64,000 nt of DNA from an uncultured Planctomycetales bacterium. Its GTDB lineage: Bacteria > Omnitrophota > Gorgyraeia > Gygaellales > Profunditerraquicolaceae. Positions 1 to 44,864 of this stretch are shown piece after piece (positions within the stretch are counted from its first letter, which is position 1; every line of letters starts with the position of its first letter). The position numbers were made by a program, and so were the translations under genes. The stretch covers positions 23,650 to 87,649 of the forward strand of contig CAZRVK010000006.1 of NCBI GenBank assembly GCA_964603585.1, read 5' to 3'. The notes under the pieces were generated by a model. That model searched no databases, was not told the DNA's origin, and saw only the letters and a program-made list of their open reading frames with translations.

Positions 1-1
1 A

Positions 2-619
2 TTAGACCGGTATATAAAGGGCAGTAAGCCGATATACCTCTTTTTGAGCCATTTCCATCTCGATCATATCGGAGGATTGCATATCCTGGCAAAATTCAAC
101 TTTGCCCAGGGAATAAATATATACGGGCCAAAAGGGGTTAAGAAACTGTTTTCCCGGGTGATCAATCATCCTTATTCCATGCCGGTGCGGTTACTTAAAA
201 CAAAGATCAGATTGAAAGAGATACGTAATAACAACGATCTTCCTTTAAGGGGTGAATTCAAGAAGTTAAGGCACAAGGGTATATGTTATGGTTACCGTTT
301 TGAACTCGACAATAAGATCGTTTCTTTTTGTACGGACACCGGTATTTGCCGGAATTTATTGGCGCTTGCCAAGAACGCGGATCTATTGATCAGTGAATGT
401 GCCTTTCGGCACGGAGATAATGATGATACATGGCCGCATATGAATCCTGAAGGAGCTGCCTGCGCTGCCCGTAAGTCAGGAGTAAAGAAACTGGTCCTGG
501 TCCATTTTGACGCTTTTGCTTATAAGACAGCCGCCGAGAGGTTATCGGCGCAAAGGTTTGCCCGAAAGGTATTTGCCAATACCGTTGCAGCATATGATGA
601 TCTGGAAATTAAACTTTAG
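2..619 (+). CDS. MBL-fold metallo-hydrolase (5' partial, runs off window start)
   Basis: Reading frame is open to position 2; HxHxDH motif (HFHLDHIGG) and downstream conserved His/Asp typical of metallo-beta-lactamase fold. Confidence 0.6.
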   Translation, partial: LDRYIKGSKPIYLFLSHFHLDHIGGLHILAKFNFAQGINIYGPKGVKKLFSRVINHPYSMPVRLLKTKIRLKEIRNNNDLPLRGEFKKLRHKGICYGYRFELDNKIVSFCTDTGICRNLLALAKNADLLISECAFRHGDNDDTWPHMNPEGAACAARKSGVKKLVLVHFDAFAYKTAAERLSAQRFARKVFANTVAAYDDLEIKL

Positions 620-656
620 CTACCGCCTAAATTAAACCGGCAGGGAAAGCAGATTT

Positions 657-2453
657 ATGATTAGAGTCGCGGATTATGTGATCCAGTTTCTTTTGTCGAA
701 GGGCATTCGAGATGTTTTTATGATTTCCGGAGGAGGTATTATTCATCTGGTGGATGCCGTAGGAAGAAATAAGGATATGAATTACTTCTGTAATTATAAT
801 GAACAGGCTACGGCTTATTGCGTAGAAGGTTATGCCCGGGTTAAAAACGGCGTTTCTGCCTGTATTTTAACTACCGGACCGGGAAGCACCAATGCCATTT
901 CCGGAGTAGCCGGAGGATGGGTGGATTCTGTCCCGATGATGATCATTTCCGGCCAGGTCAAACGGGAGATGATCGCGGATTATTCCCGGTTGAGGCAATT
1001 AGGCGAACAGGAGATAAATATCGTTGATATGGTGAAACCGGTAACCAAGTATGCCGTAACAGTTATGGATGCAGGTAATATCGGATATGAATTAGAAAAG
1101 GCTTATGCGATCGCGACCAGTTATAGGCCGGGGCCGGTCTGGATCAATATACCTTTAGATGTGCAAGGTTCATTTATTGATGAGAGTAAACTGCGCCGGT
1201 ATCCTGCAACGGATTGCTGCATTCCTGTTGTAAACACAGGGCTTTCTCTTAAGGTTAAAAAAGCGGTTGAAATGCTTAGATCTGCTAAGCGCCCGCTATT
1301 TTTATTTGGCGCAGGGATCAGGCTTAGTTCTGCCTGTGGTTTGCTGGATAAAGTGGTTAAATTGTGCAATATCCCGATATTACTTTCATTTAACGGGATG
1401 GATTTAATTACTGATGATAATCCTTTGTTTATCGGTAAACCAGGGATCATTGGTCAGAGAAGGGCTAATTTTGCCCTACAGAATTCTGATTGTCTTTTAA
1501 GTGTTGGTTCCCGCCTTAACGTAAAGATCGTCGGGTATAATTATAAGGCTTTCGCGCCAAAGGCCAAGAAGATTATTGTGGATATCGACCCAGAAGAGTT
1601 AGCCAAGCCTACTGTCACTGCGGATTTAGCGATCCAGGCGGATGCTGGTGCATTCCTAACGGAATTTTTGGCGCAAATCCAGAACAGCGGAATATCCTCC
1701 AGTGCCGATTGGATCAATGCCTGCAATAAATGGAGAAGACAATACCCGAACATTATCGACAGTTTTTATGCCGACAAAGAACATGTCAATACCTATGTTT
1801 TTTATGATAAGCTTTCGGATATTCTGGATCCTGGGGATATAGTAGTCAGCGGCAACGGGATGGCGGCGGTATGCCTTTATCAGGCATTCAAGGTTAAGGC
1901 CTGCCAACGGGTGTTTACCAATAATGGATATGGGGCAATGGGATGGGATTTACCTGCGGCGATCGGAGCCTCGATCGCCTCTGGCAGGAAAAGGGTCATT
2001 TGTGTAAGCGGGGACGGCAGTTTTCATATGAATATCCAGGAATTGGAGTTTTTGAAGTATCATGAACTTCCAGTTAAGTTATTTGTTATCAATAATCAGG
2101 GATATTCATCGATTCGCGGGAGCCAGGATAATTTCTTTGATAGCTTTTATATAGCCGCAGACGGGAATTCAGGAGTCGGCAATCCTGACTTCTCAAAGAT
2201 TGCTGCGGCTTACGGCATTGCCTACGAACGGATATCAAATAATAATGAGATCGACAACAAGTTGATCAAGGTCTTAAGTTCTGATTCTGCATTGATTTGT
2301 GAGCTGAATGTTTCCCCCAGCCAGGGGATTGTTCCAAAGGCGGCGTCTTCGCGCAAGGATGACGGCACTTTTGAATCCCGGCCATTAGAGGATATGTTCC
2401 CTTTTTTACCGGCAGATGAACTTATGCGGAATATGGAGATTTCAAACAGTTAG
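657..2453 (+). CDS. Thiamine-pyrophosphate enzyme, acetolactate-synthase large-subunit-like; candidate YerE-type two-carbon branch transferase
   Basis: 598 aa; N-terminal TPP pyrimidine-binding domain, central domain, C-terminal GDGSF TPP-binding motif; sits in CDP-deoxysugar context with RfbH. Confidence 0.6.
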   Translation: MIRVADYVIQFLLSKGIRDVFMISGGGIIHLVDAVGRNKDMNYFCNYNEQATAYCVEGYARVKNGVSACILTTGPGSTNAISGVAGGWVDSVPMMIISGQVKREMIADYSRLRQLGEQEINIVDMVKPVTKYAVTVMDAGNIGYELEKAYAIATSYRPGPVWINIPLDVQGSFIDESKLRRYPATDCCIPVVNTGLSLKVKKAVEMLRSAKRPLFLFGAGIRLSSACGLLDKVVKLCNIPILLSFNGMDLITDDNPLFIGKPGIIGQRRANFALQNSDCLLSVGSRLNVKIVGYNYKAFAPKAKKIIVDIDPEELAKPTVTADLAIQADAGAFLTEFLAQIQNSGISSSADWINACNKWRRQYPNIIDSFYADKEHVNTYVFYDKLSDILDPGDIVVSGNGMAAVCLYQAFKVKACQRVFTNNGYGAMGWDLPAAIGASIASGRKRVICVSGDGSFHMNIQELEFLKYHELPVKLFVINNQGYSSIRGSQDNFFDSFYIAADGNSGVGNPDFSKIAAAYGIAYERISNNNEIDNKLIKVLSSDSALICELNVSPSQGIVPKAASSRKDDGTFESRPLEDMFPFLPADELMRNMEISNS

Positions 2454-2500
2454 TTTTAATCCGGGAAACTTCACCAATAAGCGTATTGATCGGAGGCATC

Positions 2501-4000
2501 ATGGAGTATCCTTTATTCAATAATCTGTTTATCTTCGAAATGGCCAATAACCATATGGGGGACCTTGACCATGGGCTTGAGATCATCCGCCAGGTTAGGC
2601 GGATAACCAAGGGGTTCGATTTTAAGTTTGCCTTTAAATTGCAGTACCGCGACCTGGATACGTTTATCCATCCGGCATACAGGGATAATATGGAGTTTAA
2701 ATATGTAAAACGTTTTTCCCAGACCCGCCTGGAAAAGGGGGAGCTAAAAAAACTCAAGGATGAAATAACCCGGAACGGTTTTATTTCGGTTTGTACCCCG
2801 TTCGATGAGAATTCCGTCCTTCTTGCGGAATCACACGGGTTCGATATTATCAAGATCGGCAGCTGTTCTTTTACGGATTGGCCGCTTTTAGAGAGGATTG
2901 CCAAAACCGCTAAACCGCTTATTGCTTCAGTTGCGGGCGCCTCTTTGGAAGATATAGATCGAGTGGTAAGTTTCCTGGTCCACAGGAAAAAAGAACTGGC
3001 ACTGATGCATGCGGTTGCCCAATATCCCACAAAAAACAGTAATCTTGAACTTTCTCAAATAGATCTATTGAGGGCGCGTTACCCGCAAATCAGTGTAGGG
3101 TATTCCACGCACGAGGATCCTGGTAACCTGGATGCAATAAAGATAGCGATTGCCAAAGGAGCAAAGATATTTGAGAAGCACGTTGGGCTAAAAACAAAAG
3201 AGTTTGCTTTGAATGATTATTCTTTGACTCCGGGACAGGTCCTTGAATGGCTTAATTCCGCAAAGGGAGCGATGGAGATGTGCGGGAACATTGGATCGAG
3301 AATGGAATTTTCAAACGAAGAAAAGTCATCCTTAAGCGGATTAAGGCGGGGGGTGTTTGCAAAAACGCCGATAAATAAAGGCCAGAAAATAGAATTAACG
3401 GACCTGTTTCTTGCTATCCCTACTTTCCCCGGCCAGGTTACGGCCAATGAGCTTTCAAAATATACTGAATTCCATGCCCTTACGGATATTCAAGAGAATG
3501 CCCCGGTACTGCATTCGGCATTAAGGCAGGTAGATAACCGGGAAAAGATCTATTGTATCGTTAAACAGGTGAAGGGGATCTTGAAAAAGGCCAAGGTCTT
3601 TATTCCCGGTAGGCTTGATTTTGAGGTTTCGCACCATTATGGCGTAGATAGGTTCGCGGAATATGGCGCGACAATCATCAATGTGATAAACCGGGAGTAT
3701 TGCAAGAAATTGATTGTGCTTATCCCGAAACAGGCCCACCCCGAGCAATATCACAAACTTAAAGAAGAGACTTTTCATGTCCTCTACGGAGATGTGTTGC
3801 TTTGCATTAATGGGGTCAGCCGGGAGTGCAAGTCGGGGGATGTTATTACCATAGAACGCTCGGTGCGCCATTCTTTTTGCAGCAAGAACGGGGCGGTGAT
3901 AGAGGAGATCTCATCTACGCATTATGACCAGGATTCATATTATACTGATGAGGCGATATCCAGGAATAATAACCGAAAGACATTGATAACTTATTGGTAA
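2501..4000 (+). CDS. NeuB-family (N-acetylneuraminate/nonulosonate synthase-like) aldolase with extra C-terminal cupin-like domain
   Basis: N-terminal FEMANNHMGD motif matches NeuB TIM-barrel; ~150 aa C-terminal extension beyond SAF region; ATG 2501 preferred over TTG 2486 because of GGAGG RBS. Confidence 0.55.
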   Translation: MEYPLFNNLFIFEMANNHMGDLDHGLEIIRQVRRITKGFDFKFAFKLQYRDLDTFIHPAYRDNMEFKYVKRFSQTRLEKGELKKLKDEITRNGFISVCTPFDENSVLLAESHGFDIIKIGSCSFTDWPLLERIAKTAKPLIASVAGASLEDIDRVVSFLVHRKKELALMHAVAQYPTKNSNLELSQIDLLRARYPQISVGYSTHEDPGNLDAIKIAIAKGAKIFEKHVGLKTKEFALNDYSLTPGQVLEWLNSAKGAMEMCGNIGSRMEFSNEEKSSLSGLRRGVFAKTPINKGQKIELTDLFLAIPTFPGQVTANELSKYTEFHALTDIQENAPVLHSALRQVDNREKIYCIVKQVKGILKKAKVFIPGRLDFEVSHHYGVDRFAEYGATIINVINREYCKKLIVLIPKQAHPEQYHKLKEETFHVLYGDVLLCINGVSRECKSGDVITIERSVRHSFCSKNGAVIEEISSTHYDQDSYYTDEAISRNNNRKTLITYW

Positions 4001-4015
4001 AGAATATTTTTATTT

Positions 4016-4600
4016 ATGAAAACACTTGCCTGGGATGTTGATGATGTGCTTAATAACCTTATTGGGGAGTGGTTTGAAAAACACTGGTTAAAGAATAATC
4101 CCGGGTGTAAGTTAAGTTATGAAGATTTAACCGAAAACCCCGCATTCCGGATATTGGGGGTAGGTTATGAGGATTATTTAAAATCATTGGATGAATTCCG
4201 CCTTTTGCCGGCAGCTTCCGGGATGATGCCGGCTCCGGAAGTGCTCCTTTGGTTTAGAAATCACGGAAGCAAATTCCGCCATATTGGCCTTAGCGCACGA
4301 CCGATTATGTCGGTGCCTGGTTTGGCGGAGTGGGTATTTAAACATTTTGGCAGATGGATCAGGACATTCCATTTTGTGCCGTCTTTACGGAGCCAGGAAG
4401 ATATCCCGGTCTATGATTCCAGTAAAAAGGAGTATCTTCGCTGGCTTGGCAAGGCAGATATCCTGATCGATGATATGCCGGAGAATATTGAAGCCGCCAG
4501 GGAATTGGGGATTAAGGGGGTTTTGATCCCCCGGCCATGGAATAGCGCTCCGGAAGGTATCGATAGGGCATTAGAATCATTAACCAGTATGACTGCTTGA
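4016..4600 (+). CDS. HAD-superfamily phosphatase/nucleotidase-like hydrolase
   Basis: N-terminal DVDDVL (DxD nucleophile motif), conserved C-terminal Asp (LIDDMPEN); 194 aa. Confidence 0.5.
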   Translation: MKTLAWDVDDVLNNLIGEWFEKHWLKNNPGCKLSYEDLTENPAFRILGVGYEDYLKSLDEFRLLPAASGMMPAPEVLLWFRNHGSKFRHIGLSARPIMSVPGLAEWVFKHFGRWIRTFHFVPSLRSQEDIPVYDSSKKEYLRWLGKADILIDDMPENIEAARELGIKGVLIPRPWNSAPEGIDRALESLTSMTA

Positions 4601-4601
4601 T

Positions 4602-5489
4602 ATGGCAAGAAATATCTTTATCACCGGAGGCACGGGATTTATTGGCCGAAACCTCGTAGAACAATTAAGCGGCCGTTATGCGGTTTCTAGTCCGGCTCAT
4701 GAGCAATTGGAATTATTGGACGATGAAGCGGTTTTTGAATTCTTAAAGAATAACCGGTTCGACGTGGTAATACATGCGGCTACCTGGAATGCCACCAGGA
4801 ACTCTAAAAAGGACCTTTCGCAGGTGTTGGCGCATAACTTGAGGGCTTTTTTTAATTTAACAAGGTGCCAATCTTTTTTCGGCAAGATGCTCTATTTCGG
4901 TTCCGGAGCCGAATATGACCAGCGTTTTTATCGCGCAAAGATGCATGAGGATTATTGGGGGATGCATATTCCCGTGGATGATTACGGACTTTCGAAATAC
5001 ATTATGTCCGCATATACACAAAGGTCTTCCAATATTTATAACCTCCGGTTGTTCGGAGTTTTTGGCCGGTATGAGGATTGGCAGATCAGGTTTATTTCTA
5101 ATGCCTGCGCCAAGGCGGTGTGGGATTTGCCGATTACTATCAAGAAAAATGCGGTTTTTGATTATTTGTATATTGACGATTTGATAAAAATTACGGAATG
5201 GTTCATCGAGAATAAGCCCCGGTATAGTTGTTATAATGTGTCAAGAGGGGCAGGGATTGAACTTTTAGAGATTGCAAATAAGGTCCGCAGTATTTCTGGC
5301 AGGCAAGTAGAGTTAAAGATCCGGGAGCCAGGGTTGGCTAAAGAGTATAGTTCTGATAACAGCCGGTTGATAAAAGAGATCGGCAATTATCCATTTGCAA
5401 AGATAGATGATTCTATTAAAGACCTTTACGGATGGTATTTAAAGAATAAGCATTTGATCAATAAAGATCTGTTGCTGGTTGATAAATAA
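4602..5489 (+). CDS. Short-chain NAD(P)-dependent sugar-nucleotide reductase/epimerase (CDP-abequose/paratose synthase-like size)
   Basis: GGTGFIGRNL Rossmann motif at N-terminus; 295 aa; immediately upstream of rfbH homolog. Confidence 0.55.
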   Translation: MARNIFITGGTGFIGRNLVEQLSGRYAVSSPAHEQLELLDDEAVFEFLKNNRFDVVIHAATWNATRNSKKDLSQVLAHNLRAFFNLTRCQSFFGKMLYFGSGAEYDQRFYRAKMHEDYWGMHIPVDDYGLSKYIMSAYTQRSSNIYNLRLFGVFGRYEDWQIRFISNACAKAVWDLPITIKKNAVFDYLYIDDLIKITEWFIENKPRYSCYNVSRGAGIELLEIANKVRSISGRQVELKIREPGLAKEYSSDNSRLIKEIGNYPFAKIDDSIKDLYGWYLKNKHLINKDLLLVDK

Positions 5490-5519
5490 AAATCCCGGCA
5501 GCCGATATGAGGCAAGACG

Positions 5520-6863
5520 ATGAAAAGTGAAAAAGAGGCAAGGAAACGGATATTTTCCCTGATTAAGGGGATTTATAAGGCGCGTGCGGAAAAAAACAGG
5601 TTCCTTCCCGCCAGGAGCATGGTTAATTATGGCGGCAGGGTTTATGATGAAAAAGAGATCATCAGTTTAGTTGATGCCTCTTTGGATTTTTGGCTGACCG
5701 AAGGAAGATTTGCCGCTGAATTTGAAGATAGATTAGCCAGATTTATCGGAGTGAAATACTGCCTTTTGACTAATTCCGGTTCTTCGGCTAATCTTTTGGC
5801 GGTTTCTGCTCTTACCTCCGCAAAACTTAAGGACAGGCGCCTTAAGCCAGGGGATGAGGTGATCACTACCGCTTGTGGTTTTCCGACGACACTTAACCCG
5901 ATCATCCAGAACAGGCTGGTCCCGGTTTTTATCGATATAGAACTGGGTACATATAATATAAACTGCCAAAATATTGAAAAGGCCGTCACTAAAAAGACCA
6001 AGGCTGTTTTTGTGGCGCATACCCTGGGAAATCCCGCAGACCTGCATTTACTGCAGGAAATTGCCAAAAGGCATAAATTATGGCTTATTGAGGACAACTG
6101 CGATGCCTTAGGTTCCAGCTACGATTCAAGGCTTACCGGATCTTTTGGGGATATATCGACTTGTAGTTTTTATCCTCCCCATCATATAACTATGGGTGAG
6201 GGGGGTGCGGTTTTAACCAGCGACCCGCTTTTACGCAGGATTATTATCTCATTCCGGGATTGGGGCAGGGATTGCTGGTGTAAGCCTGGCCAGGATAATA
6301 GTTGCCGAAACAGGTTTAACAGGAAATTTTTTAAATTACCGTTTGGTTATGACCATAAGTATGTATTTTCTCATATCGGGTATAATCTTAAGGTTACCGA
6401 TATGCAGGCTGCGATCGGTTGTGCGCAAATGGATAAGCTGCCAGGATTTATCCGCGCACGCAGGCAGAATTTCGAATATTTCTATGAGTCCTTCAGGCAG
6501 TATGAAAAGTATTTTATTCTGCCTCAAACCTTGCATCGCGCCCGGCCGAGCTGGTTCGGTTTTCCTCTTTTTGTAAAAAAGAACCAGCTATTTTCGCGTT
6601 CCGATATCGTTAGTTATCTGGAGGCCAAAAAGATTTCCACCCGTATGCTTTTTGGCGGTAATTTGCTTAAACAGCCGGCTTATGAAAAAATAGCTTATAG
6701 GGTGTCTCCAGGAGGGCTAAAGAATACTGACCTGGTAATGAAGAACTTGTTCTGGATAGGAGTATATCCGGGGCTAACCCATGCGATGAGGGAGTATGTT
6801 TTGCACTGTATGGGCGTATTTATCAGCCTTAAGGAAAAATCTTGTAAACCACTTCCTAAGTGA
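5520..6863 (+). CDS. rfbH: CDP-6-deoxy-D-xylo-4-hexulose-3-dehydrase (E1; PLP/PMP-dependent DegT family)
   Basis: 447 aa; long colinear similarity to Salmonella RfbH/DdhC as I recall it (TTSGSSANLLA, KPGDEVIT, FGDISTCSFYPPHHITMGEGGAV, FRDWGRDCWC, YDHKY, GYNLK.TDMQAAIG, WFGF, TRMLF.GNL..QPAY). Confidence 0.85.
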   Translation: MKSEKEARKRIFSLIKGIYKARAEKNRFLPARSMVNYGGRVYDEKEIISLVDASLDFWLTEGRFAAEFEDRLARFIGVKYCLLTNSGSSANLLAVSALTSAKLKDRRLKPGDEVITTACGFPTTLNPIIQNRLVPVFIDIELGTYNINCQNIEKAVTKKTKAVFVAHTLGNPADLHLLQEIAKRHKLWLIEDNCDALGSSYDSRLTGSFGDISTCSFYPPHHITMGEGGAVLTSDPLLRRIIISFRDWGRDCWCKPGQDNSCRNRFNRKFFKLPFGYDHKYVFSHIGYNLKVTDMQAAIGCAQMDKLPGFIRARRQNFEYFYESFRQYEKYFILPQTLHRARPSWFGFPLFVKKNQLFSRSDIVSYLEAKKISTRMLFGGNLLKQPAYEKIAYRVSPGGLKNTDLVMKNLFWIGVYPGLTHAMREYVLHCMGVFISLKEKSCKPLPK

Positions 6864-6869
6864 TATAAT
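6842..6869 (+). promoter_or_regulatory. Candidate promoter for S41 peptidase gene (TTGTAA-N16-TGaTATAAT extended -10)
   Basis: Hexamers seen directly overlapping 3' end of rfbH. Confidence 0.3.
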
Positions 6870-6915
6870 AATCAGGAAATATTCGTTGATTGCCTTACCT
6901 GAAACGAGGAGAATA

Positions 6916-8133
6916 ATGCGGAAAATGCTTTCTATGTCTTTGCCTTTATTGGTTTTAGCGGCAGGGTTTTGCGGCTGTACTTTCAATAAAAAAGAAAGGG
7001 AAGAGAAGGTTTTTCAAGGTTATGTCGAGTATTTTAAATCTGTTTACGATGTGATGGAGAAGAATTATTACCTGCCGGTTACTGCGCAGGCCTTTGAGCA
7101 ATTCGTGGCTGAATTCAAGTCTAAAATCTTCGGTCCGCAGGTAAAGGATAAGACCAAGATAGATGATGCGGTTAAGCATGTCGGGACAGGGATCATGGTC
7201 TCTAAACTAAAATCCAGCGAGGATCCTTTTACTAATTTCTTCCCTCCCCAGGTGGTGAAAGAGTTTAAACAGTCTGTATTAGGGTATGCCGGCGATATCG
7301 GAATAGAAGGGTATGTAAAAGACTCGCGTTTCCTGATTACTCAAGTCGAACCGCGTTCGGATGCATTTAAAAAAGGCATCCGGATTAGCGATGAAATATT
7401 GAAGATAAATGATAATCCGGTCGCCGATATCCCGGCAGATTCGATAAAAAAGATATTCTCTCCTGAAATAGAGTCTAAAGTCGTTTTAGAGTTGTTTTCT
7501 CCCTCCACAAACCAGGTTTATACGGCAAGTGTTGCCAGTTCGCAGTATTTTAAGCAGTCGGTTTTCTTGATCCCCACAACAAACGCGGAGGTATCCTGTT
7601 TAAAGATCAAATTCTTTAACGAGGAAACCGGAAATGAAATGCGTACGGCTATCGATGATTTGAATAGGTCAAAGATAAGGAAATTGATCCTTGATCTAAG
7701 GGATAATTCCGGAGGTCCGCCCCTTGCCGCTTGGGATATGGCAGGAGCATTCTTACCGAAAGACCAGAAATTATTTTATTTCCAGAAGCGTAACAGTGAG
7801 CCTCAAGGGCTTGTCAGTACAGAATCCCCTGTTTTGTATGAAGGGACAATGCTGGTTCTGATAAATAAGGGTACCGGTAGTGCCGCGGAGCTTTTTGCCG
7901 GGATTCTGCAGGCGTATAACCGTGCAGGGCTTGTCGGGACTAATTCTGCCGGGCAGGTATTCTTAAAAAGCCTCTTTGACCTTAGCGATGGTGCTACCTT
8001 GGAATTGACTGTTGCTAAAGGTTATCTTTTTAACGGTAATCCTATATCTGCCGAAGGGCTTAAGCCAGATATTGCTATGGCCGATGATAACCAGCTATTA
8101 GCCTCGGTCGTCAGTATTTTTACAAAACAATAA
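6916..8133 (+). CDS. S41 family C-terminal processing peptidase, probable lipoprotein
   Basis: Signal peptide with Cys (LAAGFCGC), PDZ-like region, DLRDNSGG S41 signature; ORF-track start 6796 overlaps rfbH, internal ATG 6916 chosen. Confidence 0.6.
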   Translation: MRKMLSMSLPLLVLAAGFCGCTFNKKEREEKVFQGYVEYFKSVYDVMEKNYYLPVTAQAFEQFVAEFKSKIFGPQVKDKTKIDDAVKHVGTGIMVSKLKSSEDPFTNFFPPQVVKEFKQSVLGYAGDIGIEGYVKDSRFLITQVEPRSDAFKKGIRISDEILKINDNPVADIPADSIKKIFSPEIESKVVLELFSPSTNQVYTASVASSQYFKQSVFLIPTTNAEVSCLKIKFFNEETGNEMRTAIDDLNRSKIRKLILDLRDNSGGPPLAAWDMAGAFLPKDQKLFYFQKRNSEPQGLVSTESPVLYEGTMLVLINKGTGSAAELFAGILQAYNRAGLVGTNSAGQVFLKSLFDLSDGATLELTVAKGYLFNGNPISAEGLKPDIAMADDNQLLASVVSIFTKQ

Positions 8134-8166
8134 GTCAGAGTCTCAATCCGGGTTAAAGTCAGTAAA

Positions 8167-8892
8167 ATGGCTGATTTAAAGTCAAAGAAGATCTTGATGA
8201 TTGTGCCGGCTTATAATGAAGAGCTGAATATTTCCCGGGTGGTAAAGGCGCTTAAGGAAAAGCATCCTTCTTTTTGTGTGTTAGTGGTCGACGATTGTTC
8301 TAACGATAATACTGCTCGGGTTGCCGGTATGTCCGGGGCAGAAGTTGTTTCTCTTGCTTTTAATCTGGGGATTGGAGGCGCGGTTCAGACCGGATTCCAA
8401 TATGCATTGAAACATGATTTTGATGCGGCGGTGCAGTTTGACGGCGACGGTCAGCATGATGTTAATTGTATCTCGGATATTTTAGGCCCGGTACTTGCCG
8501 GCAGGCTTGATATCTGTATCGGCAGCAGGTTTTTATCCAAATCCGGTGCGTTCAAATCATCTTTCTTGCGCAGGATCGGGATAAGGTTTTTTGCTGCCTT
8601 AATCAGCTGTATAATAAGACAGAAACTTACTGATCCTACTTCGGGCAACCGGGCATTTTCAAGAAGGATGATCAGCCTGTTTGCGAAAGATTATCCGGTG
8701 GATTTTCCTGAACCGGAAGGGATAGTAATTGCCAAGCATCATCATGCCTTAATAGGAGAGACTGCGGTAGTTATGCATGCACGCAAGGCTGGAGCTTCAT
8801 CGATCAGTTTCCTTAAATCCGGGTACTATATGTTCAAGGTAACCCTGGCAGTAATCCTTGCAGTTTTAAAGAAAAGGAGAGATATTCCATGA
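8167..8892 (+). CDS. GT2 polyprenyl-phosphate sugar transferase (Dpm1/ArnC-like)
   Basis: N-terminal VPAYNEE...VVDDCS DxD-type GT-A motifs; 241 aa soluble catalytic domain. Confidence 0.7.
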   Translation: MADLKSKKILMIVPAYNEELNISRVVKALKEKHPSFCVLVVDDCSNDNTARVAGMSGAEVVSLAFNLGIGGAVQTGFQYALKHDFDAAVQFDGDGQHDVNCISDILGPVLAGRLDICIGSRFLSKSGAFKSSFLRRIGIRFFAALISCIIRQKLTDPTSGNRAFSRRMISLFAKDYPVDFPEPEGIVIAKHHHALIGETAVVMHARKAGASSISFLKSGYYMFKVTLAVILAVLKKRRDIP

Positions 8893-9260
8893 GGATAAAA
8901 ATACTGGCGATAATGATCTCAATATTTGTATTTTTCCTTGTGATTGACCTTATCCGCAGGGAAAAACTTACTTTTAAATATGCGGTGGTCTGGATCCTTA
9001 TGTGCCTGGCCGGGGTAATTGGTGCTGTCTATGAAGATATCATATTTAAAAGTGCGAGTTTTTTTGGGTTTGAGCTGGCCAGCAATTTTATATTCTTTTT
9101 GCTTGGGGTATTTTTAGTGGTTTTAAGCCTTATGCTTAGTATTTATATTTGCCAGCAGAACCGGCATCTGGAATCGATCGCCCAGAAAATAGGATTGATG
9201 GAACTGGAATTATCCAAGTTGAATGCTGAACGGGCTCAATCTAATCAGAAGAAAGGTTAA
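8889..9260 (+). CDS. Small membrane protein, DUF2304-like, translationally coupled to preceding GT2
   Basis: 123 aa, two TM helices, ATGA overlap with upstream GT2; such small membrane partners commonly follow Dpm1-like GT2 genes. Confidence 0.4.
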   Translation: MRIKILAIMISIFVFFLVIDLIRREKLTFKYAVVWILMCLAGVIGAVYEDIIFKSASFFGFELASNFIFFLLGVFLVVLSLMLSIYICQQNRHLESIAQKIGLMELELSKLNAERAQSNQKKG

Positions 9261-12677: not shown

Positions 12678-13112
12678 ATGAAAAAGCTGTTGCAGCTTGT
12701 GGGGGTATTCTTGATCTTAGTTTTAACCAGCAGTAATGTATTCGCACAATACCGTTTTTTTGACGGGAATGACTGGAACCTGATCAAGGCGTCAGGCTTG
12801 AATGAATCGGATATGGAGCATGTTAAGGTGATGTTGTTAAAGACAATTTACGAGACTACTATATTTGATGGGACCCCGATGTTTGCGATTAATTCCGGAA
12901 AGGATGATTTTCTGACGGTTTATAACCAGGATTTTGCCAAGTATCCTGCGATTATCGATTTGTTTTACAGCCGGCCGGAAAACGCCGGATTCCCGGTGTT
13001 TTATGCTTTGCGTATCGCAGATATGATAAAGAATGGTACCCCGGAAACAGAGGTTGAGCAGTATAAGCAGGCGATCGTAGCTAAGTTTAGGGAGCAGGGG
13101 CTTATCAAATAA
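12678..13112 (+). CDS. Secreted hypothetical protein (paralog A)
   Basis: Strong RBS AAGGAG, signal peptide, shares FDGNDW and ...LRIADM.KN... and C-terminal GLIK with next ORF. Confidence 0.5.
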   Translation: MKKLLQLVGVFLILVLTSSNVFAQYRFFDGNDWNLIKASGLNESDMEHVKVMLLKTIYETTIFDGTPMFAINSGKDDFLTVYNQDFAKYPAIIDLFYSRPENAGFPVFYALRIADMIKNGTPETEVEQYKQAIVAKFREQGLIK

Positions 13113-13139
13113 AAGGGATTTTTTACTTAAGGAGAACAG

Positions 13140-13640: not shown

Positions 13641-13647
13641 CTAAAAA

Positions 13648-20862: not shown

Positions 20863-20866
20863 CAGT

Positions 20867-22593: not shown

Positions 22594-22613
22594 TAGGTAA
22601 AAAAGGGGTGAAA

Positions 22614-23384: not shown

Positions 23385-23402
23385 GAAGAAAGGGCAGTAT
23401 TC

Positions 23403-24983: not shown

Positions 24984-24989
24984 TTTCAT

Positions 24990-25514: not shown

Positions 25515-25518
25515 AGTC

Positions 25519-28929: not shown

Positions 28930-29991
28930 ATGGATAATCCAGAATTCGACCGGACAGACAGGTTAAATACCCGCCAGAGGCTGAAAAACGAGAAGCCAGC
29001 CGTATATGAGAAGTTTGTTCGGCTTGACCAAAGGCCAAACCAGGGGGGGCCTTTTAGCCCGGTGATCGAGATCGCTTACCGCTATGATTGTAACCTTCGT
29101 TGCCGGCATTGTTTTGCCAGCCGGTTTGAGAAAAAGAAACGCAGCCTTTCCTTGGATGACCTAAGGGGATTATCTTTACAAGCTGGCCAGATGGGGGTAT
29201 ATCAATTCATTCTGCAAGGAGGGGAACCGCTCTTTTGGCCCGATTTAGATGCGGTGGTTAGTGCTATCAATCCAAAAGAATTTTATTTAGGGTTAGTTAC
29301 TAATGCGTCATTATTGAATAAAGAAAAGATCATTCACCTTCGGGAGATAGGCATCGATAAGATTGTGATCAGCCTGGATTCTTATGATATGCTTCAGTAC
29401 GAACAGAATCGTAACCGTCCGGGATTATTCAATCATACGCTTGACATGCTGATTCTGGCTAAAAGTGCCGGGTTGCGGGTTGTCATTAATACCCTGCTTA
29501 CAAAAGAAAATGTCAGGTCCGCAAAGCTCCTGGAATTGATCGAGTTTGCCAAGAGGCATTCATTCTTTGTTTATACTAATTTCGCGACTCCTATCGGCAG
29601 TTGGCAGGGGCGCTATGACCTGTTGCTTGACGAGGATGATGCAAAGTATATTTATGATCTAAGCCTAAAGCATAAAGTAGTAAAGCGGGATATTTTTCCG
29701 TATATGGGGCAGAAAGTGGGATGTCCGGCGATCAGGTCGGTAGTATATATTACCCAATACGGTGATGTGCTTCCCTGCCCCTTCATACATATTTCTATCG
29801 GCAATATATTCGAATCTGATTTACCCCGGATCATTGAACAGGGTATGAGGCTGAAATGCTTTAAAGAACAGTCTGGGGTATGCCTGGCTTGTGAAGACCG
29901 CGATTTTATCAGGCAGAAGATCTCCAGGGTATATGATAGATCTTCTCCTGTCCCGATGGATGAGATCTTCGATAAGGATGAATTTTGTTGA
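28930..29991 (+). CDS. Radical SAM / SPASM-domain enzyme
   Basis: CNLRCRHC, QGGEP; C-terminal CPAIRS...CPF...CLAC SPASM-type Cys spacing. Confidence 0.7.
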   Translation: MDNPEFDRTDRLNTRQRLKNEKPAVYEKFVRLDQRPNQGGPFSPVIEIAYRYDCNLRCRHCFASRFEKKKRSLSLDDLRGLSLQAGQMGVYQFILQGGEPLFWPDLDAVVSAINPKEFYLGLVTNASLLNKEKIIHLREIGIDKIVISLDSYDMLQYEQNRNRPGLFNHTLDMLILAKSAGLRVVINTLLTKENVRSAKLLELIEFAKRHSFFVYTNFATPIGSWQGRYDLLLDEDDAKYIYDLSLKHKVVKRDIFPYMGQKVGCPAIRSVVYITQYGDVLPCPFIHISIGNIFESDLPRIIEQGMRLKCFKEQSGVCLACEDRDFIRQKISRVYDRSSPVPMDEIFDKDEFC

Positions 29992-29995
29992 TCCT

Positions 29996-31045
29996 ATGGC
30001 GATAAAAAAGTATTCACAACTTCGTGATCCTGCGCGTAAAAGTTTAGAGAGGTTATTGCCTCTAAAATACCCGATCAGCCTGTATATCGAAACGACCAAT
30101 AGGTGTAATTTCCGTTGCCGTTATTGTCCGCTGTCTCTTGGCGATTATTCGAAGGTTGCTGGAGGGTTCAATGATTTAAGTCTGGACAGGTTCGGCGAGA
30201 TTTCTCGGCAGATCAAAAAATGGCCCAGGTTAAAGGTTTTGCGTTTTTATTTTATGGGTGAGCCTTTATTGAATCCTGCTTTGCCGCAAATGATCAGGAC
30301 AGCGTCTTTAAATAAATTGGCCGAACGCACAGAATTGACGACCAATGCTTCGCTTCTTGATGCGAAGAGGTCATTGGCATTGATCCATTCCGGCCTGGAT
30401 TATCTTCGGATAAGCATTTCAAGCGTTAGCGACTTACGGCATAAACATATTACGCAGACCAGTTTTTCCGTGGACAATATCCGCGGGAATGTGGAGTTAT
30501 TTTGGCTGATGCGCTCTGCTTTAGGCAAAAAGAAGCCGTTTATCTATGTCAAAATGCTGGATTCCTTTAACGTTTTCGAGAACTCAAGATTTATTAAGCT
30601 GTACAAGAATATATCCGATGAGGCAGTGATCGAGAAACCAATGAATTGGGATGGATACAAAAAGCATGATTTTCTATCTTCGGTCTATAAAACCAAGCAA
30701 GAGGCAGTTTTAAAGAGATTATATCCTTACCCTAAAGTTGTGTGCCCATTCCCTTTTTATAACCTTATGATAAACGCAAATGGGGATGTTACTGTTTGCT
30801 GCGTTGACTGGAACCGTTCAACACAGGTAGGGAATGTTTTTAAAAATAGTTTGGGGGAAATCTGGAACGGTAAGCGCCTGCGCGATTTCCGGCGCATGCA
30901 ATTTTCGGGTAATCGCAAGGCAAATCCATCGTGCGCTAATTGCCAGTTTTTATTCACAACTCCGGACAACCTGGATAATATCCGTCCGGAGAATATCGAC
31001 AGTATCCTTGGGTTAAGGCAAAAGGGAGTAAAGGAGAAGGCTTGA
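29996..31045 (+). CDS. Radical SAM / SPASM-domain enzyme
   Basis: CNFRCRYC; C-terminal CPFPF...VCCVDW...CANCQF; start moved to ATG 29996 right after upstream stop. Confidence 0.7.
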   Translation: MAIKKYSQLRDPARKSLERLLPLKYPISLYIETTNRCNFRCRYCPLSLGDYSKVAGGFNDLSLDRFGEISRQIKKWPRLKVLRFYFMGEPLLNPALPQMIRTASLNKLAERTELTTNASLLDAKRSLALIHSGLDYLRISISSVSDLRHKHITQTSFSVDNIRGNVELFWLMRSALGKKKPFIYVKMLDSFNVFENSRFIKLYKNISDEAVIEKPMNWDGYKKHDFLSSVYKTKQEAVLKRLYPYPKVVCPFPFYNLMINANGDVTVCCVDWNRSTQVGNVFKNSLGEIWNGKRLRDFRRMQFSGNRKANPSCANCQFLFTTPDNLDNIRPENIDSILGLRQKGVKEKA

Positions 31046-32547
31046 AGATAGTCCTGATACATCCGTATTTTACTTCAGACCGGGACGAATTTTTCCAGGT
31101 TTTCAGCGAACCATTAGGTTTGCTTAGCCTGGCTACTTATATTGAGCATAAATTTCAAGAGGAAGTTTTAGTCGAGGTTCTTGATCTGTATGCCATGGGT
31201 TTTGATAACATAGAGGAAAGATCCCCTAAGCGTGTAACCCGCGGCCTCTCTAGTGAAAATGAAATCTGCGAAATATTAAGGAAGACGCAGGCGGATATCG
31301 TAGGTATTCATTGTAATTTTACCGGATTCGCAGAGGACGCCTTAGAAATCGCAGGGTTTGTAAAGAAGGCCTTGCCGCAAACTGTTTTGGTGATGGGAGG
31401 GGCGCATGCCTCATATGCTGCCGGGGATATTTTGTCCGGGTATCGGGATGTTGATTATATCGTCCGCGGCGAAGGAGAAGAGACCTTCTATGAATTGATA
31501 AAGTTAATCAGGCAAAGACGTGATCCCGGGAATCTACCGGGTATCGCTTGGCGTGATGCAAGCGGCAGGGTTGTTTTAGCCCCAGAAAGGCAGCTTATAC
31601 AGGAGATTGAGAGTTTGCCTATTCTTGACCGCCGGCATATCGATATGCCGGCATACCTAAGGTTCAACAAGATATCGTTTCCCATGGCGATGCATTATCC
31701 GGTGGCAACGGTCATGGCCTCACGGGGATGCCCGTATAACTGTATTTTTTGCAGTACGAAAAATATGTGGGGCAGGGCTTGGAGAGGGCGCTCTCCGCAA
31801 AATGTAGTTAATGAGATCGGAGGGTTGGTTTCGGATTATGGAGTAAAAGAGATCGCTTTTTATGACGATCAATTCCTGGTGGATAAGTCTTGGGTGCATG
31901 AGATCTGCGATTTGATCATTGCGAAAAAATTTAATATTTCTCTTTCCCTTCCTGCCGGAACAAGCGTTTGGATGGCGGATGAGTCTTTATTAAGAAAGAT
32001 GAAACGGGCAGGATTTTATCGCCTTAACTTGCCGATTGAAAGCGGTAACCAGAATGCCCTTAAATTCATCAGAAAGCCGGTTGATCTGAAATCTGTCCCG
32101 GGGATAATACGTTCTGCCTGCCGGCTGGGGTTCTGGACTTCCGCGAATTTTATCATTGGGTTTCCTTACGAGACGAAAGCAGAGATTATGCAGACGGTTA
32201 AGTTTGCCTATAATTGCGGCATTGATTACCCGTTTTTCTTTATTGCAAAACCTTTTATTGGTTCCGAGATGTATGATATATATGTGAAGGAAGGTTTATT
32301 AAAGGACCCGAAAGAGGCAAATTCCAGTGTTTTTGTGGCAAAGATCGGTTCTCGGCATTTGAGCGCAGAAGAGTTGACCAGGATACGTTTTAATGCCGAA
32401 AGAGGGTTTATGAAACATAAAATAAAATGGTGTTTAAACCCATTTAATCTGGCGTTCTATGTTTTACCAAGGGTTTCTTCTTTGAAGGGGATACGATATG
32501 CGCTAAAGATATTATTGTCTGTGATCCGGGGTAAACATAAGCGTTGA
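31042..32547 (+). CDS. Cobalamin-binding (class B) radical SAM enzyme, probable methyltransferase
   Basis: TTG start with AAGGAGAAGG RBS; N-terminal B12-binding-like domain (IVLIHPYF...VGIHC), radical SAM CPYNCIFC. Confidence 0.7.
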   Translation: MKIVLIHPYFTSDRDEFFQVFSEPLGLLSLATYIEHKFQEEVLVEVLDLYAMGFDNIEERSPKRVTRGLSSENEICEILRKTQADIVGIHCNFTGFAEDALEIAGFVKKALPQTVLVMGGAHASYAAGDILSGYRDVDYIVRGEGEETFYELIKLIRQRRDPGNLPGIAWRDASGRVVLAPERQLIQEIESLPILDRRHIDMPAYLRFNKISFPMAMHYPVATVMASRGCPYNCIFCSTKNMWGRAWRGRSPQNVVNEIGGLVSDYGVKEIAFYDDQFLVDKSWVHEICDLIIAKKFNISLSLPAGTSVWMADESLLRKMKRAGFYRLNLPIESGNQNALKFIRKPVDLKSVPGIIRSACRLGFWTSANFIIGFPYETKAEIMQTVKFAYNCGIDYPFFFIAKPFIGSEMYDIYVKEGLLKDPKEANSSVFVAKIGSRHLSAEELTRIRFNAERGFMKHKIKWCLNPFNLAFYVLPRVSSLKGIRYALKILLSVIRGKHKR

Positions 32548-32575
32548 ACTTTGTGTGCACATGTAAGAGGGTTGT

Positions 32576-33793
32576 ATGGATAAAAAAAAGAAGATAAAAA
32601 AAGTCATCCGGGCCTGCCCGATCTGTTTAGGGGGCTCTGGGGAATTACTGTATGAACAAAGGTTCCATCTTTATCAGGGGCATTGCCTTTTGGATGCTTA
32701 TGATGTCGTTTCCTGCATAAAATGCGGGTTTGTTTATGCAGATAGTGGAGCTACCCAGAAAGACTATAATCGTTACTATAGCGAGTTTTCCAAGTATGAG
32801 AATTCTCTTGCTCCCGGAGGCCTGGTTAATCAGTGTGATTTAGATAAGTATGAACGGATGGTGCATGACCTGTCGAAGATCATCCCGGATAAGAATACTT
32901 CAATCTTGGATATTGGATGCGCTAAAGGCGGATTACTGGCAACTTTTAAGGCGCATGGATATAATGATCTTACCGGGCTGGATCCTTCTTTAAATTGTGT
33001 CGCGCAGGTTAAGGCGCAGGGTATCCCTGCTTTGCAGGGCGGATTGTTCTTGGATAATTTCCCGCAAGGCTTCCTAAAACAGGCTTTTGATTGTGTGATC
33101 GTTTCTCACGTGCTCGAGCATGTTTATGATCTATCCACTGCTGTCAAGAATGCCTTTTCTCTGGTTAAAACCGGGGGATTTTTATATCTTGAAGTCCCGG
33201 ATTCTTCCCGTTATACTCAATATTATGTTGCTCCATACCATTATTTCGATTTTGAGCATATTAATCATTTTGATCTGTGTTCGTTGAACAACCTGTTTGT
33301 TAAAAGCCATTCGGAATATGTTGCTTCTGGCAAGAAGGACCTGCAGCATTCGAATACTGTATATTATCCTGCAGTTTATTCGGTTTATCGCAAATGCGAT
33401 GGTTTGGTTTTAGACAGAGAGATTGTTTCAGATCAGAATTTGAGGGACAATGTCATTAGGTATATCGAAATGTCCCGTCAGGCGGATCATTGGCGGGAGT
33501 TAGATGAGCTTGCCGCCTCGAAGGAAGCGATCGTGGTTTGGGGTGCGGGGGCGTATGCTTTGCGTCTTTACCGGATGAGCCCTTTAAGCGAGTGTAATAT
33601 TATCAGTTTTATCGATAATGACCTTAAAAAGAGACAGGCAGTGTTTGCTACTAATGTAACAGTTAAATTACCAAAAGAAGTTTTGCCGGATTTTAAAGGC
33701 ACGATCGTTGTTTGTTCTGCGGTGTATAATAATGAGATCGTAAAAGAGATCGATGGAATGCGGTTGAATAACCGGGTGGTTGTTTTAAAATAA
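32576..33793 (+). CDS. NDP-hexose C-methyltransferase-like (TylCIII architecture: Zn-ribbon + MTase + C-methyltransferase C-terminal domain)
   Basis: CPICLG...CIKCGF zinc ribbon, ILDIGCAKGGLL motif I, VSHVLEHV, 405 aa as expected for TylCIII-like enzymes. Confidence 0.6.
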   Translation: MDKKKKIKKVIRACPICLGGSGELLYEQRFHLYQGHCLLDAYDVVSCIKCGFVYADSGATQKDYNRYYSEFSKYENSLAPGGLVNQCDLDKYERMVHDLSKIIPDKNTSILDIGCAKGGLLATFKAHGYNDLTGLDPSLNCVAQVKAQGIPALQGGLFLDNFPQGFLKQAFDCVIVSHVLEHVYDLSTAVKNAFSLVKTGGFLYLEVPDSSRYTQYYVAPYHYFDFEHINHFDLCSLNNLFVKSHSEYVASGKKDLQHSNTVYYPAVYSVYRKCDGLVLDREIVSDQNLRDNVIRYIEMSRQADHWRELDELAASKEAIVVWGAGAYALRLYRMSPLSECNIISFIDNDLKKRQAVFATNVTVKLPKEVLPDFKGTIVVCSAVYNNEIVKEIDGMRLNNRVVVLK

Positions 33794-33810
33794 GGGAAGG
33801 CAGGTCGAAT

Positions 33811-34746
33811 ATGTCAGGTAAGCTGATCAGCATTGTTACCCCATGTTATAATGAAGAAGAAAATGTCGAGGCAGTTTATACAGAAGTTAAAGCGGTCTTT
33901 GAGAAGATACACGGATATTGTCGGGAGCATATTTTTATAGACAATTCATCCGAGGATAATACGGTAAAGATCCTGCGTAAGATCGCTGAATCTGACAAGA
34001 ATGTGAAAGTGATCATAAATACCAGGAACTTTGGGCATATTCGTTCCGGCGCTTACGGGTATCTGCAGTCAAGAGGCGATGCGGTGATCCCGGTGGTTGC
34101 GGATTTACAGACCCCACCTGATTTAATCCCGGAGTTTATCAGGAAATGGGAACAGGGATATAAGGTTGTTGTGGGGATAAGAAAAAAGGCCCAGGGTTCA
34201 ATTATACTTTCTTTTGCGGGGAAGTTGTATTATAAGATCATCAGCAAGCTCTCGGATACGCAGTTGATCCATGATTTTATGGGGTATGGTCTGTTTGACC
34301 GTAAGGTTATCGAGATCATTAGAGAGATGCATGATCCATATCCTTATATCCGGGGATTGATCTCGGAAATCGGTTTTAAAACCGCCCAAATAGAATATAT
34401 CCAGCCGGCACGTAAAAGAGGATTAACCAAAAATAATTTTTTTACCTTATACGATATGGCGATGCTTGGGATCACCAATTATTCCAAGATACCTTTAAGG
34501 CTGGCGACAATGTTGGGGTTTATATTTTCCGTGGTTAATATCCTTATCGCGATAGGATATTTTATTTACAAACTTATATCCTGGCAGACATTTTCAGTGG
34601 GGGTGGCTCCGATAGTTATAGGGCTTTTTTTGTTTTCTTCGGTGCAACTGTTTTTTTTGGGGATCCTGGGGGAGTATGTTGGTTCGATCCATACCCAGGT
34701 ATTAAAAAGGCCGTTGGTGATCGAGGAGGAACGCATTAATTTTTAA
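33811..34746 (+). CDS. GT2 polyprenyl-phosphate sugar transferase with two C-terminal TM helices (ArnC/GtrB-like)
   Basis: IVTPCYNEEEN, IDNSSEDNT, C-terminal TM pair. Confidence 0.7.
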   Translation: MSGKLISIVTPCYNEEENVEAVYTEVKAVFEKIHGYCREHIFIDNSSEDNTVKILRKIAESDKNVKVIINTRNFGHIRSGAYGYLQSRGDAVIPVVADLQTPPDLIPEFIRKWEQGYKVVVGIRKKAQGSIILSFAGKLYYKIISKLSDTQLIHDFMGYGLFDRKVIEIIREMHDPYPYIRGLISEIGFKTAQIEYIQPARKRGLTKNNFFTLYDMAMLGITNYSKIPLRLATMLGFIFSVVNILIAIGYFIYKLISWQTFSVGVAPIVIGLFLFSSVQLFFLGILGEYVGSIHTQVLKRPLVIEEERINF

Positions 34747-40790: not shown

Positions 40791-40794
40791 TATT

Positions 40795-44755: not shown

Positions 44756-44864
44756 AAGAATCATTTTTTTTATCATTTGGTAACACAAAAAACATTAACA
44801 TAGCACTTTGGCCTTAGCGGTGATGATCGGGTCAAGCGGGCTAAAAACGGGGAGGATGAGCTGG

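Follow-up and report, generated by a model that had tools for sequence, protein, structure and literature searches.

A 64,000-nucleotide stretch of DNA from an uncultured bacterium of the Omnitrophota (contig CAZRVK010000006.1, positions 23,650 to 87,649 of the forward strand), referred to below as the window, contains at its positions 657-6863 a five-gene block that is most likely the core of a pathway for a cytidine diphosphate (CDP)-activated 3,6-dideoxyhexose with an acyl-derived side chain at C4. As judged from sequence comparison, a C4-branched 3,6-dideoxyhexose is the probable product. It is the best reading of the block, as the original prediction had proposed, because the thiamine diphosphate (ThDP)-dependent enzyme encoded at its start is not an acetolactate synthase (ALS), is closest to the carboligase JanthE, and is syntenic in related loci with the 3-dehydrase RfbH (15 of 19 loci) and with CDP-glucose genes (15-16 of 19). 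The yersiniose-type branch of two carbons, which had been suggested along with it, does not appear to fit, since a conserved pair of genes for a NeuB-cupin fusion and a HAD-like protein holds the slot in which the acyl donor would be made. We consider it conceivable, with a chance slightly short of even, that this phosphoenolpyruvate (PEP)-dependent fusion of a NeuB-type synthase with an isomerase, together with a HAD-like phosphatase, supplies a polyhydroxylated 3-deoxy-2-ulosonic acyl donor to the YerE-like ThDP enzyme, which would lead to previously unseen, 'ulosonyl-branched' higher-carbon 3,6-dideoxy sugars. The block is laid out as follows:

657..2453, + strand: ThDP carboligase, JanthE/YerE-like; 598 aa, three TPP_enzyme domains (Pfam)
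2501..4000, + strand: NeuB-type synthase fused to a C-terminal cupin; 499 aa from the ATG at 2501, Pfam NeuB and Cupin_2
4016..4600, + strand: small HAD-superfamily-like protein; 194 aa, DxDxV motif, weak HAD matches
4602..5489, + strand: extended short-chain dehydrogenase/reductase (SDR), an oxidoreductase of nucleoside diphosphate (NDP)-sugars; 295 aa, Pfam Epimerase and RmlD_sub_bind
5520..6863, + strand: RfbH/DdhC (E1) 3-dehydrase, dependent on pyridoxamine phosphate and [2Fe-2S], substrate an NDP-4-keto-6-deoxyhexose; 447 aa, NF011936

Three of these open reading frames (ORFs), for the ThDP enzyme, the SDR and RfbH, had been named in the original prediction and are present at exactly the coordinates given there, on the + strand like all substantial ORFs of the window. 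The accompanying picture of a gene trio was not borne out, as the NeuB-cupin (2501-4000) and HAD-like (4016-4600) genes also lie inside the block, surrounded by gaps of 1 to 47 nt between the ThDP and SDR genes. The NeuB-cupin ORF opens at a TTG at 2486, and the database copy of the protein begins at the ATG at 2501. All five ORFs are intact and closely spaced, with their catalytic residues kept. A scan of window positions 1-9000 for promoters and terminators returned sites no more frequently than expected by chance.

Enzymes of the five-gene block

The product of 5520-6863 is clearly an RfbH/DdhC E1 dehydrase, as had been predicted. It scored 690 bits against the NCBIfam model NF011936, above the equivalog cutoff of 423, and matched the structure of the Yersinia pseudotuberculosis E1 enzyme (3bcx) over its full length (522.7 bits, E 7.5e-156, residues 3-435). 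The segment 'YPPHHITMGEGG' / 'YPPHHITM' places the active-site His where aminotransferases have Lys (His220 in Yersinia E1); because 'YPPHH' aligns with 'YPAHH' of wild-type 3bcx ('YPAHHITM', with 'YPAKHITM' in the 3bb8 mutant), RfbH keeps the His that replaces the aminotransferase Lys. All four cysteines of the pattern C-X57-C-X-C-X7-C are present ('NCDALGS', then 'RDCWCKPGQDNSC') at a spacing identical to that of the Yersinia counterpart ('CCDALGS' and 'RDCYCAPGCDNTC'), and we take C-X57-C-X1-C-X7-C to be the unusual [2Fe-2S] ligand motif of E1. A motif scan for an E3 (AscD/DdhD)-type partner, using Fer2 and FNR-type motifs, found none in the window or in the related loci L001-L044, and E3-type Pfam domains were absent from the window scans and from the annotated related loci. 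Because no locus examined has a linked E3, an unlinked electron donor seems to be the rule for the module family and not a defect of the window, and the electron donor of E1 is presumably encoded at an unlinked site.

The ThDP enzyme, described previously as ALS-like, stayed below the cutoff of all ALS models (best TIGR00118, 384.7 bits against a cutoff of 538). Compared with all solved structures, it matched JanthE of Janthinobacterium sp. HH01 (8rph) best, with 417.6 bits, which is 175 bits above any ALS match; E. coli ALS I reached 242 bits, plant acetohydroxyacid synthase 237 bits and PpYerE (5ahk) 236 bits. These scores exclude a housekeeping ALS. Sequence identity is 36% to JanthE, 29% to PpYerE and 28% to E. 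coli ALS I, so that PpYerE, the sole YerE homolog compared, stands about as far from the window enzyme as ALS does. The canonical GDG motif is present ('SGDGSF'), whereas JanthE has CDG instead. A neighbour-joining tree, calculated with no bootstrap support and with YpYerE, ErwE, MMAR_2332 and MygE left out, placed the enzyme in a group whose margin is formed by JanthE, while PpYerE and ALS fell outside this group. No ilvN or ilvC neighbours of the ThDP gene were found in the Pfam and NCBIfam scans of the window. The closest full-length homologs are 64-65% identical, and those above 50% come from Omnitrophota, Endomicrobiales, Planctomycetota, Verrucomicrobiota and bacteria of the Candidate Phyla Radiation. 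JanthE, a YerE-like enzyme that has been characterised, joins 2-oxo acids (4-hydroxy-2-oxovalerate among them) to ketones, and its physiological substrates were stated as unidentified in 2025 (PMC12188165, PMC12247030). We infer that the window enzyme is a YerE-like, ketone-accepting carboligase distinct from biosynthetic ALS, which would act on C4 of a CDP-4-keto-3,6-dideoxyhexose.

The fusion protein matched Pfam NeuB with 129.9 bits and Cupin_2 with 27.1 bits. A true sialic or pseudaminic acid synthase was rejected on account of scores far below the equivalog cutoffs of TIGR03569 (NeuB; 122.2 bits, cutoff 399.65) and TIGR03586 (PseI; 112.4 bits, cutoff 340.25). The closest solved relative of the NeuB domain is 3g8r (393-502 bits; 393 bits over residues 6-345), a structural-genomics entry from Chromobacterium violaceum named 'probable spore coat polysaccharide biosynthesis protein E', which differs from the window fusion in its length (350 against 499 aa) and in having no cupin domain. 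The motifs 'GYSTHE' and 'FEKH' align with 'GLSDH' and 'LERH' of Neisseria meningitidis NeuB, and the metal-binding His pair located therein is invariant in 25 homologs. A profile of the cupin domain built from 25 homologs matched D-lyxose ketol-isomerase (2y0o, E 1.4e-14), D-lyxose/D-mannose isomerase (7nzo, E 1.3e-9) and mannose-6-phosphate isomerase (7zvm, E 2e-5). A library clustered at 50% identity contains 127 representatives of the cupin domain family at E <=1e-30, and many of the top matches are fusions of about 500 aa. Full-length NeuB-cupin fusions keep about 60% identity across phyla, and at this level the cassette was found in Omnitrophota, Bacteroidales, Chloroflexota, Saganbacteria and the cultured cyanobacterium Calothrix sp. 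NIES-2098. The fusion probably makes a 4-hydroxy-2-oxo (3-deoxy-2-ulosonic) acid for use as acyl donor. A conventional sialic-type pathway is unlikely, because the window and seven annotated related loci yielded neither a synthetase for a cytidine monophosphate (CMP)-ulosonate nor any other gene of nonulosonic acid synthesis.

In the HAD-like protein, the segment WDVDDVLN (DxDxV motif I) and K137 are invariant, as is the second Asp (D153) of a near-invariant acidic pair. Its matches were weak (TIGR01509, HAD-IA, E 6.6e-4, below cutoff; PDB 3cnh, E 0.022); its apparent counterpart in L049, of the same size and in the same position, gave a faint match to NT5C. The protein would act as a phosphatase on a phosphorylated ulosonate or its precursor. 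For the SDR upstream of RfbH, a CDP-abequose or paratose synthase had been considered on account of its size. The protein is indeed an extended SDR of 295 aa (Pfam Epimerase 81.9 bits, RmlD_sub_bind, GGTGFIG and YGLSK motifs), but size alone is no evidence for such a synthase, and none is recognisable in it: the best matches were remote (RmlD, Fcl, GalE, heptose epimerase), and no abequose or paratose synthase model or structure was matched. We regard it as a putative YerF-like reductase of the C1' ketone of the branch.

Gene order in related loci

Module genes were mapped by tblastn on 44 related loci, and synteny was counted over the 19 non-redundant loci in which 4 kb or more flank the ThDP gene on each side. 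Near this gene, 16 of the 19 loci have a nucleotidyltransferase and 15 a 4,6-dehydratase; RfbH with at least 45% identity lies within 10 kb in 15, and a distant DegT in three more. The same SDR of about 290 aa (43-55% identity, mostly directly beside the ThDP gene) was found in 14/19, the full NeuB-cupin in 8/19 and the HAD-like protein in 6/19; the last two counts are biased, because three of the 19 loci were chosen via NeuB-cupin or JanthE. In relatives of many phyla, the ThDP gene thus stands beside RfbH, glucose-1-phosphate cytidylyltransferase and CDP-glucose 4,6-dehydratase. Two loci of typical gene order were tested with curated models and yielded 417-428 bits for the cytidylyltransferase (TIGR02623, cutoff 300) and 494-500 bits for the dehydratase (TIGR02622, cutoff 278); in L001, models of these types were the best matches but just under cutoff. 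The module family is CDP-glucose based, as the cytidylyltransferase and dehydratase models pass their curated cutoffs in relatives.

The NeuB-cupin gene adjoins the ThDP gene, or is separated from it by the HAD-like gene only, in L001, L002, L009, L010, L012, L019, L045, L046, L048 and L049. Where relatives have a NeuB-cupin, the HAD-like gene usually lies between it and the ThDP gene; where mapped, it never occurs without NeuB-cupin, and proteins of the same size hold its position in L048 and L049. A reverse test was made with four contexts picked solely by NeuB-cupin similarity and the length of the available contig, namely Calothrix sp. NIES-2098, a WOR-1/Saganbacteria bin, a Chloroflexota bin and a JGI metagenome contig. 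Each of these has dehydratase, E1, cytidylyltransferase, NeuB-cupin, a protein of about 195 aa and the ThDP enzyme, followed in three of the four by the SDR of about 290 aa.

Relatives without NeuB-cupin have other enzymes next to the ThDP gene: an HpcH/HpaI aldolase in L024 and L006, an HMGL-like enzyme in L016, and a 2-hydroxyacid dehydrogenase in the gap just upstream in L013. Two of the NeuB-less relatives, L021 (10178-11089) and L024 (13347-14423), also carry genes resembling 3-dehydroquinate synthase (sugar phosphate cyclase) beside the ThDP/RfbH module, each with a short-chain SDR near the cyclase-like gene, and these may represent a further donor or tailoring cassette.

The JanthE locus (L047, 6805-15782) contains a cytidylyltransferase-type gene, a dehydratase, DegT, JanthE, an SDR, a DmpF-like acetaldehyde dehydrogenase, a DmpG/HMGL-like aldolase, a further SDR and a glycosyltransferase, and matches the ErwE/F/J/I erwiniose cluster of Pectobacterium atrosepticum (PMC9306805). 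In erwiniose synthesis, the aldolase pair ErwI/ErwJ makes 4-hydroxy-2-oxopentanoate, which ErwE adds to CDP-4-keto-3,6-dideoxyglucose, rejecting pyruvate (PMC9306805). That the JanthE locus is an erwiniose-type cluster implies 4-hydroxy-2-oxovalerate and CDP-4-keto-3,6-dideoxyglucose as the natural substrates of JanthE. The NeuB-cupin and HAD-like pair occupies the donor-cassette position held by a pyruvate aldolase in the JanthE cluster, in the published ErwE cluster (PMC9306805) and in other relatives, which points to a longer, hydroxylated branch.

Proposed pathway and its alternatives

The pathway that we propose fits the 'unifying scheme' known from yersiniose, erwiniose, caryophyllose and gastriose (PMC9306805). 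A cytidylyltransferase and a 4,6-dehydratase with genes outside the window would provide CDP-4-keto-6-deoxy-D-glucose. From this substrate, whose source is presumed, RfbH, whose identity as an E1 enzyme is shown, would strip the C3 hydroxyl to yield CDP-4-keto-3,6-dideoxyglucose. In the donor branch, the cupin domain would turn a ketose or ketose phosphate into an aldose, the NeuB domain would join the aldose with PEP, the resulting 3-deoxy-2-ulosonic acid being a 4-hydroxy-2-oxo acid, and the HAD-like protein would take off a phosphate. The ThDP enzyme would then decarboxylate the ulosonic acid and attach the resulting acyl carbanion at the C4 ketone, forming a tertiary alcohol, as its family and synteny suggest; the 295-aa SDR, from its position, would reduce the C1' ketone of the branch in a YerF-like manner, and downstream glycosyltransferases would put the sugar in place. 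The predicted branch would exceed that of yersiniose, with its two carbons, in both length and hydroxylation. Isomerase, PEP-condensing synthase and HAD phosphatase form a trio in the synthesis of 3-deoxy-D-manno-octulosonic acid (KDO; KdsD/KdsA/KdsC) and of 2-keto-3-deoxynononic acid (KDN; mannose-6-phosphate isomerase, KDN-9-P synthase, phosphatase), which the cupin, NeuB and HAD-like components of the window mirror, with the NeuB fold and metal ligands kept as in NeuB for sialic acid. The window differs from these ulosonic acid pathways in its scores below the NeuB and PseI cutoffs, in the absence of a CMP-activating enzyme and in that the product is proposed to serve as a ThDP substrate instead of being activated and transferred. 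NeuB chemistry suits the donor role, as PEP and an aldehyde give a 4-hydroxy-2-oxo acid, the class that ErwE requires (PMC9306805). For the model as a whole, including the NeuB-derived donor, we regard the case as about evenly balanced.

Among the known systems, the JanthE locus resembles the window in its E1-type DegT (53% identical to window RfbH), ThDP enzyme, SDR and donor-forming cassette. The cassette itself is of a different kind: JanthE and Erw loci have a DmpG/DmpF-type pyruvate aldolase with acetaldehyde dehydrogenase, the window the PEP-dependent NeuB-cupin and HAD-like proteins. The JanthE locus also has the cytidylyltransferase-type gene and the dehydratase, whereas the window has no CDP-glucose genes. 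The YerE/YerF pathway to yersiniose A in Yersinia pseudotuberculosis shares with the window the E1-type 3-dehydrase, the ThDP carboligase and a reductase, working on CDP-4-keto-3,6-dideoxyhexose (PMC9306805, PMC12247030); it differs in using pyruvate as donor, for which no donor cassette is needed, and its ddhA, ddhB and ddhD are absent from the window. In the clusters for caryophyllose (MMAR_2331-2333) and gastriose (MygE/MygI) and in those of R. palustris, a long hydroxylated branch arises via a dedicated 2-oxo-acid-forming enzyme beside the ThDP enzyme (PMC9306805). These clusters, likened to the window by description only, employ a pyruvate aldolase where the window has a NeuB-type PEP-dependent enzyme; the HpcH/HpaI-type aldolase of L024 and L006 belongs to the class implicated for caryophyllose. 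The pathway type is thus already known, and the NeuB-derived supply of the branch appears to be a route not described for it. In the literature searched, no NeuB-type PEP-dependent donor cassette was found for YerE-type clusters, and the genome-mining survey of Krug et al. 2024 may already list such clusters.

Several observations weigh against the proposed pathway. Cytidylyltransferase, 4,6-dehydratase and E3-type reductase, which the original prediction had rightly reported as missing, are absent from all 64 kb: a Pfam scan that covered the ORFs of 120 aa or more, apart from three small ones near the 3' end, gave no NTP_transferase or FNR-type match, and tblastn with a relative's cytidylyltransferase and dehydratase found no match in the window, so that the sugar nucleotide is identified from relatives only. 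In L001 (Candidatus Gorgyraea atricola, 63% identity), the nearest relative for which context is available, cytidylyltransferase and dehydratase stand directly upstream of the ThDP gene, where the window has an MBL-fold/RNase Z-like ORF. The original prediction had presumed these genes to lie upstream and had made the presence of CDP-glucose activation genes nearby a condition, of which it is not cleared within the DNA covered; genome and metagenome scans for DNA further upstream returned only relatives of at most 56% identity (at most 49% over the full length). The HAD assignment is weak, and a single-sequence structure model of the protein was unusable (predicted local distance difference test score, pLDDT, 43.9). 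With only 23% identity over 145 aa, the SDR was rejected as an ortholog of the reductase beside JanthE, and its YerF-like role is accordingly read from its position. The NeuB-associated ThDP enzymes did not form one clade in the simple neighbour-joining tree. Finally, JanthE also accepts pyruvate in vitro (PMC12188165), so that pyruvate may be the donor.

A yersiniose-type pathway, in which the ThDP enzyme would attach two carbons derived from pyruvate and the SDR would play the part of YerF, while the NeuB-cupin and HAD-like proteins made an unrelated ulosonic acid for the same glycan, is nevertheless unlikely. YerE and JanthE both accept pyruvate (PMC12247030, PMC12188165), sialic-type sugars are the normal products of NeuB-family enzymes, and in some relatives, such as L021, no donor gene was mapped near the ThDP gene; yet NeuB-cupin falls far under the NeuB and PseI equivalog cutoffs, the window and the seven annotated loci have no CMP-ulosonate synthetase or nonulosonic-acid gene, and the order of NeuB-cupin, HAD-like and ThDP genes is kept across phyla, with aldolases in that slot elsewhere. 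The branch might instead be extended after its attachment: the ThDP enzyme would add a short hydroxy-acyl unit, such as one derived from hydroxypyruvate, the cupin would isomerise the resulting ketol branch to an aldehyde, and NeuB would extend this with PEP to a branch ending in an ulosonic acid. An isomerase-like cupin, the need of NeuB for an aldehyde acceptor and the fusion of the two, suggestive of consecutive steps, would agree with such an order, but it leaves the HAD-like protein without a role, and we know of no NeuB enzyme that uses nucleotide sugars. As the aldol step moreover precedes the ThDP coupling in the case of ErwE (PMC9306805), we consider extension after branching very unlikely.

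The module could also be incomplete or re-purposed, acting on another NDP-4-keto-6-deoxyhexose made elsewhere, or be non-functional in this organism. The 64 kb hold no nucleotidyltransferase or dehydratase, both of which L001 has directly upstream of its ThDP gene, and the cluster is rearranged relative to L001, whose block of GT9, radical S-adenosylmethionine (rSAM) enzyme, glycosyltransferase family 2 (GT2) and second rSAM enzyme is found at window 18105-24479. Such a fate is quite unlikely in view of the integrity, close spacing and conserved catalytic residues of the five ORFs; L002 likewise has no nucleotidyltransferase within 10 kb, and unlinked precursor genes are common. Hardly credible, lastly, is a housekeeping ALS that lies near sugar genes by chance. 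The top NCBIfam names are indeed acetolactate synthase, and some sources name homologs so, but this candidate was rejected on scores far below each ALS cutoff and far higher for JanthE than for any ALS, and the gene has no ilvN or ilvC neighbours and shows conserved synteny with RfbH.

Acyl-branched 3,6-dideoxy sugars are rare surface antigens, and the ThDP enzymes that make them are sought as biocatalysts for chiral tertiary alcohols. In the known pathways the branch comes only from pyruvate or from the product of a pyruvate aldolase, and a NeuB-type donor cassette would extend this scheme. Should the NeuB-derived donor prove true, it would constitute a third, non-aldolase route into acyl-branched sugars, with unusually long, sugar-like branches predicted, and would provide a function for the 'sialic acid synthase/cupin' fusion, which is widespread and well conserved, and probably also for 3g8r, an orphan structure. 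As one carrier of the cassette, Calothrix sp. NIES-2098, has been cultured, the idea is open to direct testing. The window itself, with its precursor genes out of view, is one member of this NeuB-donor variant and adds little beyond that.

Other genes of the window

Two further features were recorded to the left and to the right of the block:

2..619, + strand: MBL-fold/RNase Z-like ORF (Lactamase_B_2 65.7 bits), running off the window start; not in the pathway
28930..34746, + strand: two rSAM/SPASM genes, a B12-dependent rSAM (B12-rSAM) gene, a methyltransferase and a GT2 (Pfam); probably serving the same glycan cluster in tailoring and transfer

The ORF at 2..619 has partial RNase Z matches, an HFHLDH motif and no in-frame upstream stop codon, and is the visible left border of the module. 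On the other side, a C-terminal processing peptidase of family S41 (PDZ and Peptidase_S41, 6796-8133) separates RfbH from the first GT2; because its longest ORF overlaps the RfbH 3' end by 68 nt, translation probably begins further downstream than this ORF indicates.

Compared with the genes flanking the module in L001, the products of 28930-34746 showed 40% identity for the rSAM protein at 28930-29991, 44% for the GT2 at 33811-34746 and 29% for the B12-rSAM protein, and we infer that these genes are linked to the module as tailoring and transfer genes. A trio of B12-rSAM, C-methyltransferase (Methyltransf_13/14) and rSAM/SPASM genes also stands beside the module in the relatives L001, L002, L009 and L032. 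Within the window, rSAM genes form an unusually dense set in one glycan cluster between 9223 and 32547, with rSAM at 9223 and 26208, rSAM/SPASM at 19029, 23403, 28930 and 29891, and B12-rSAM at 31042; a flavodoxin/4Fe-4S fusion (27100-27885) and several methyltransferases lie among them.

A split transketolase pair (Transketolase_N; Transket_pyr with Transketolase_C), followed by a TylF-like methyltransferase, is encoded at 20831-22593. At the matching place in L001, between rSAM and GT2, an E1_dh and Transket_pyr pair of the 2-oxoacid-dehydrogenase type was found, which resembles the window pair only weakly. Enzymes of both ThDP superfamilies have been proposed to branch sugars in Streptomyces antibiotics (PMC12247030), and for this reason the glycan cluster may make a second branched sugar.

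Positions 8167-9260 and 16657-18120 encode a PpgS-like polyprenyl-phosphate GT2, a small DUF2304 membrane protein and a YfhO-like protein, a set that resembles a three-component, lipid-carrier-dependent system for extracytoplasmic glycosylation. At 39351-41919, a 479-aa protein with an RmlD-like reductase domain (residues 191-458), placed behind an N-terminal region of 190 aa that has no family match, comes before a type I phosphomannose isomerase and a class III aminotransferase, and the three may be further sugar-nucleotide genes outside the main cluster.

Within the otherwise well-annotated glycan cluster, seven consecutive or clustered ORFs at 12678-16653 and 24486-26205 (144, 166, 585, 415, 165, 174 and 228 aa) gave no Pfam match above threshold, the 228-aa ORF having a weak, sub-threshold match to AP_endonuc_2 only. 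Further downstream, at 44342-48898, NikR, an OprB-family porin and CbiM(N)/CbiQ/CbiO stand in a row as a nickel/cobalt uptake unit; as this unit includes its own outer-membrane porin of the OprB family, the host has an outer membrane.

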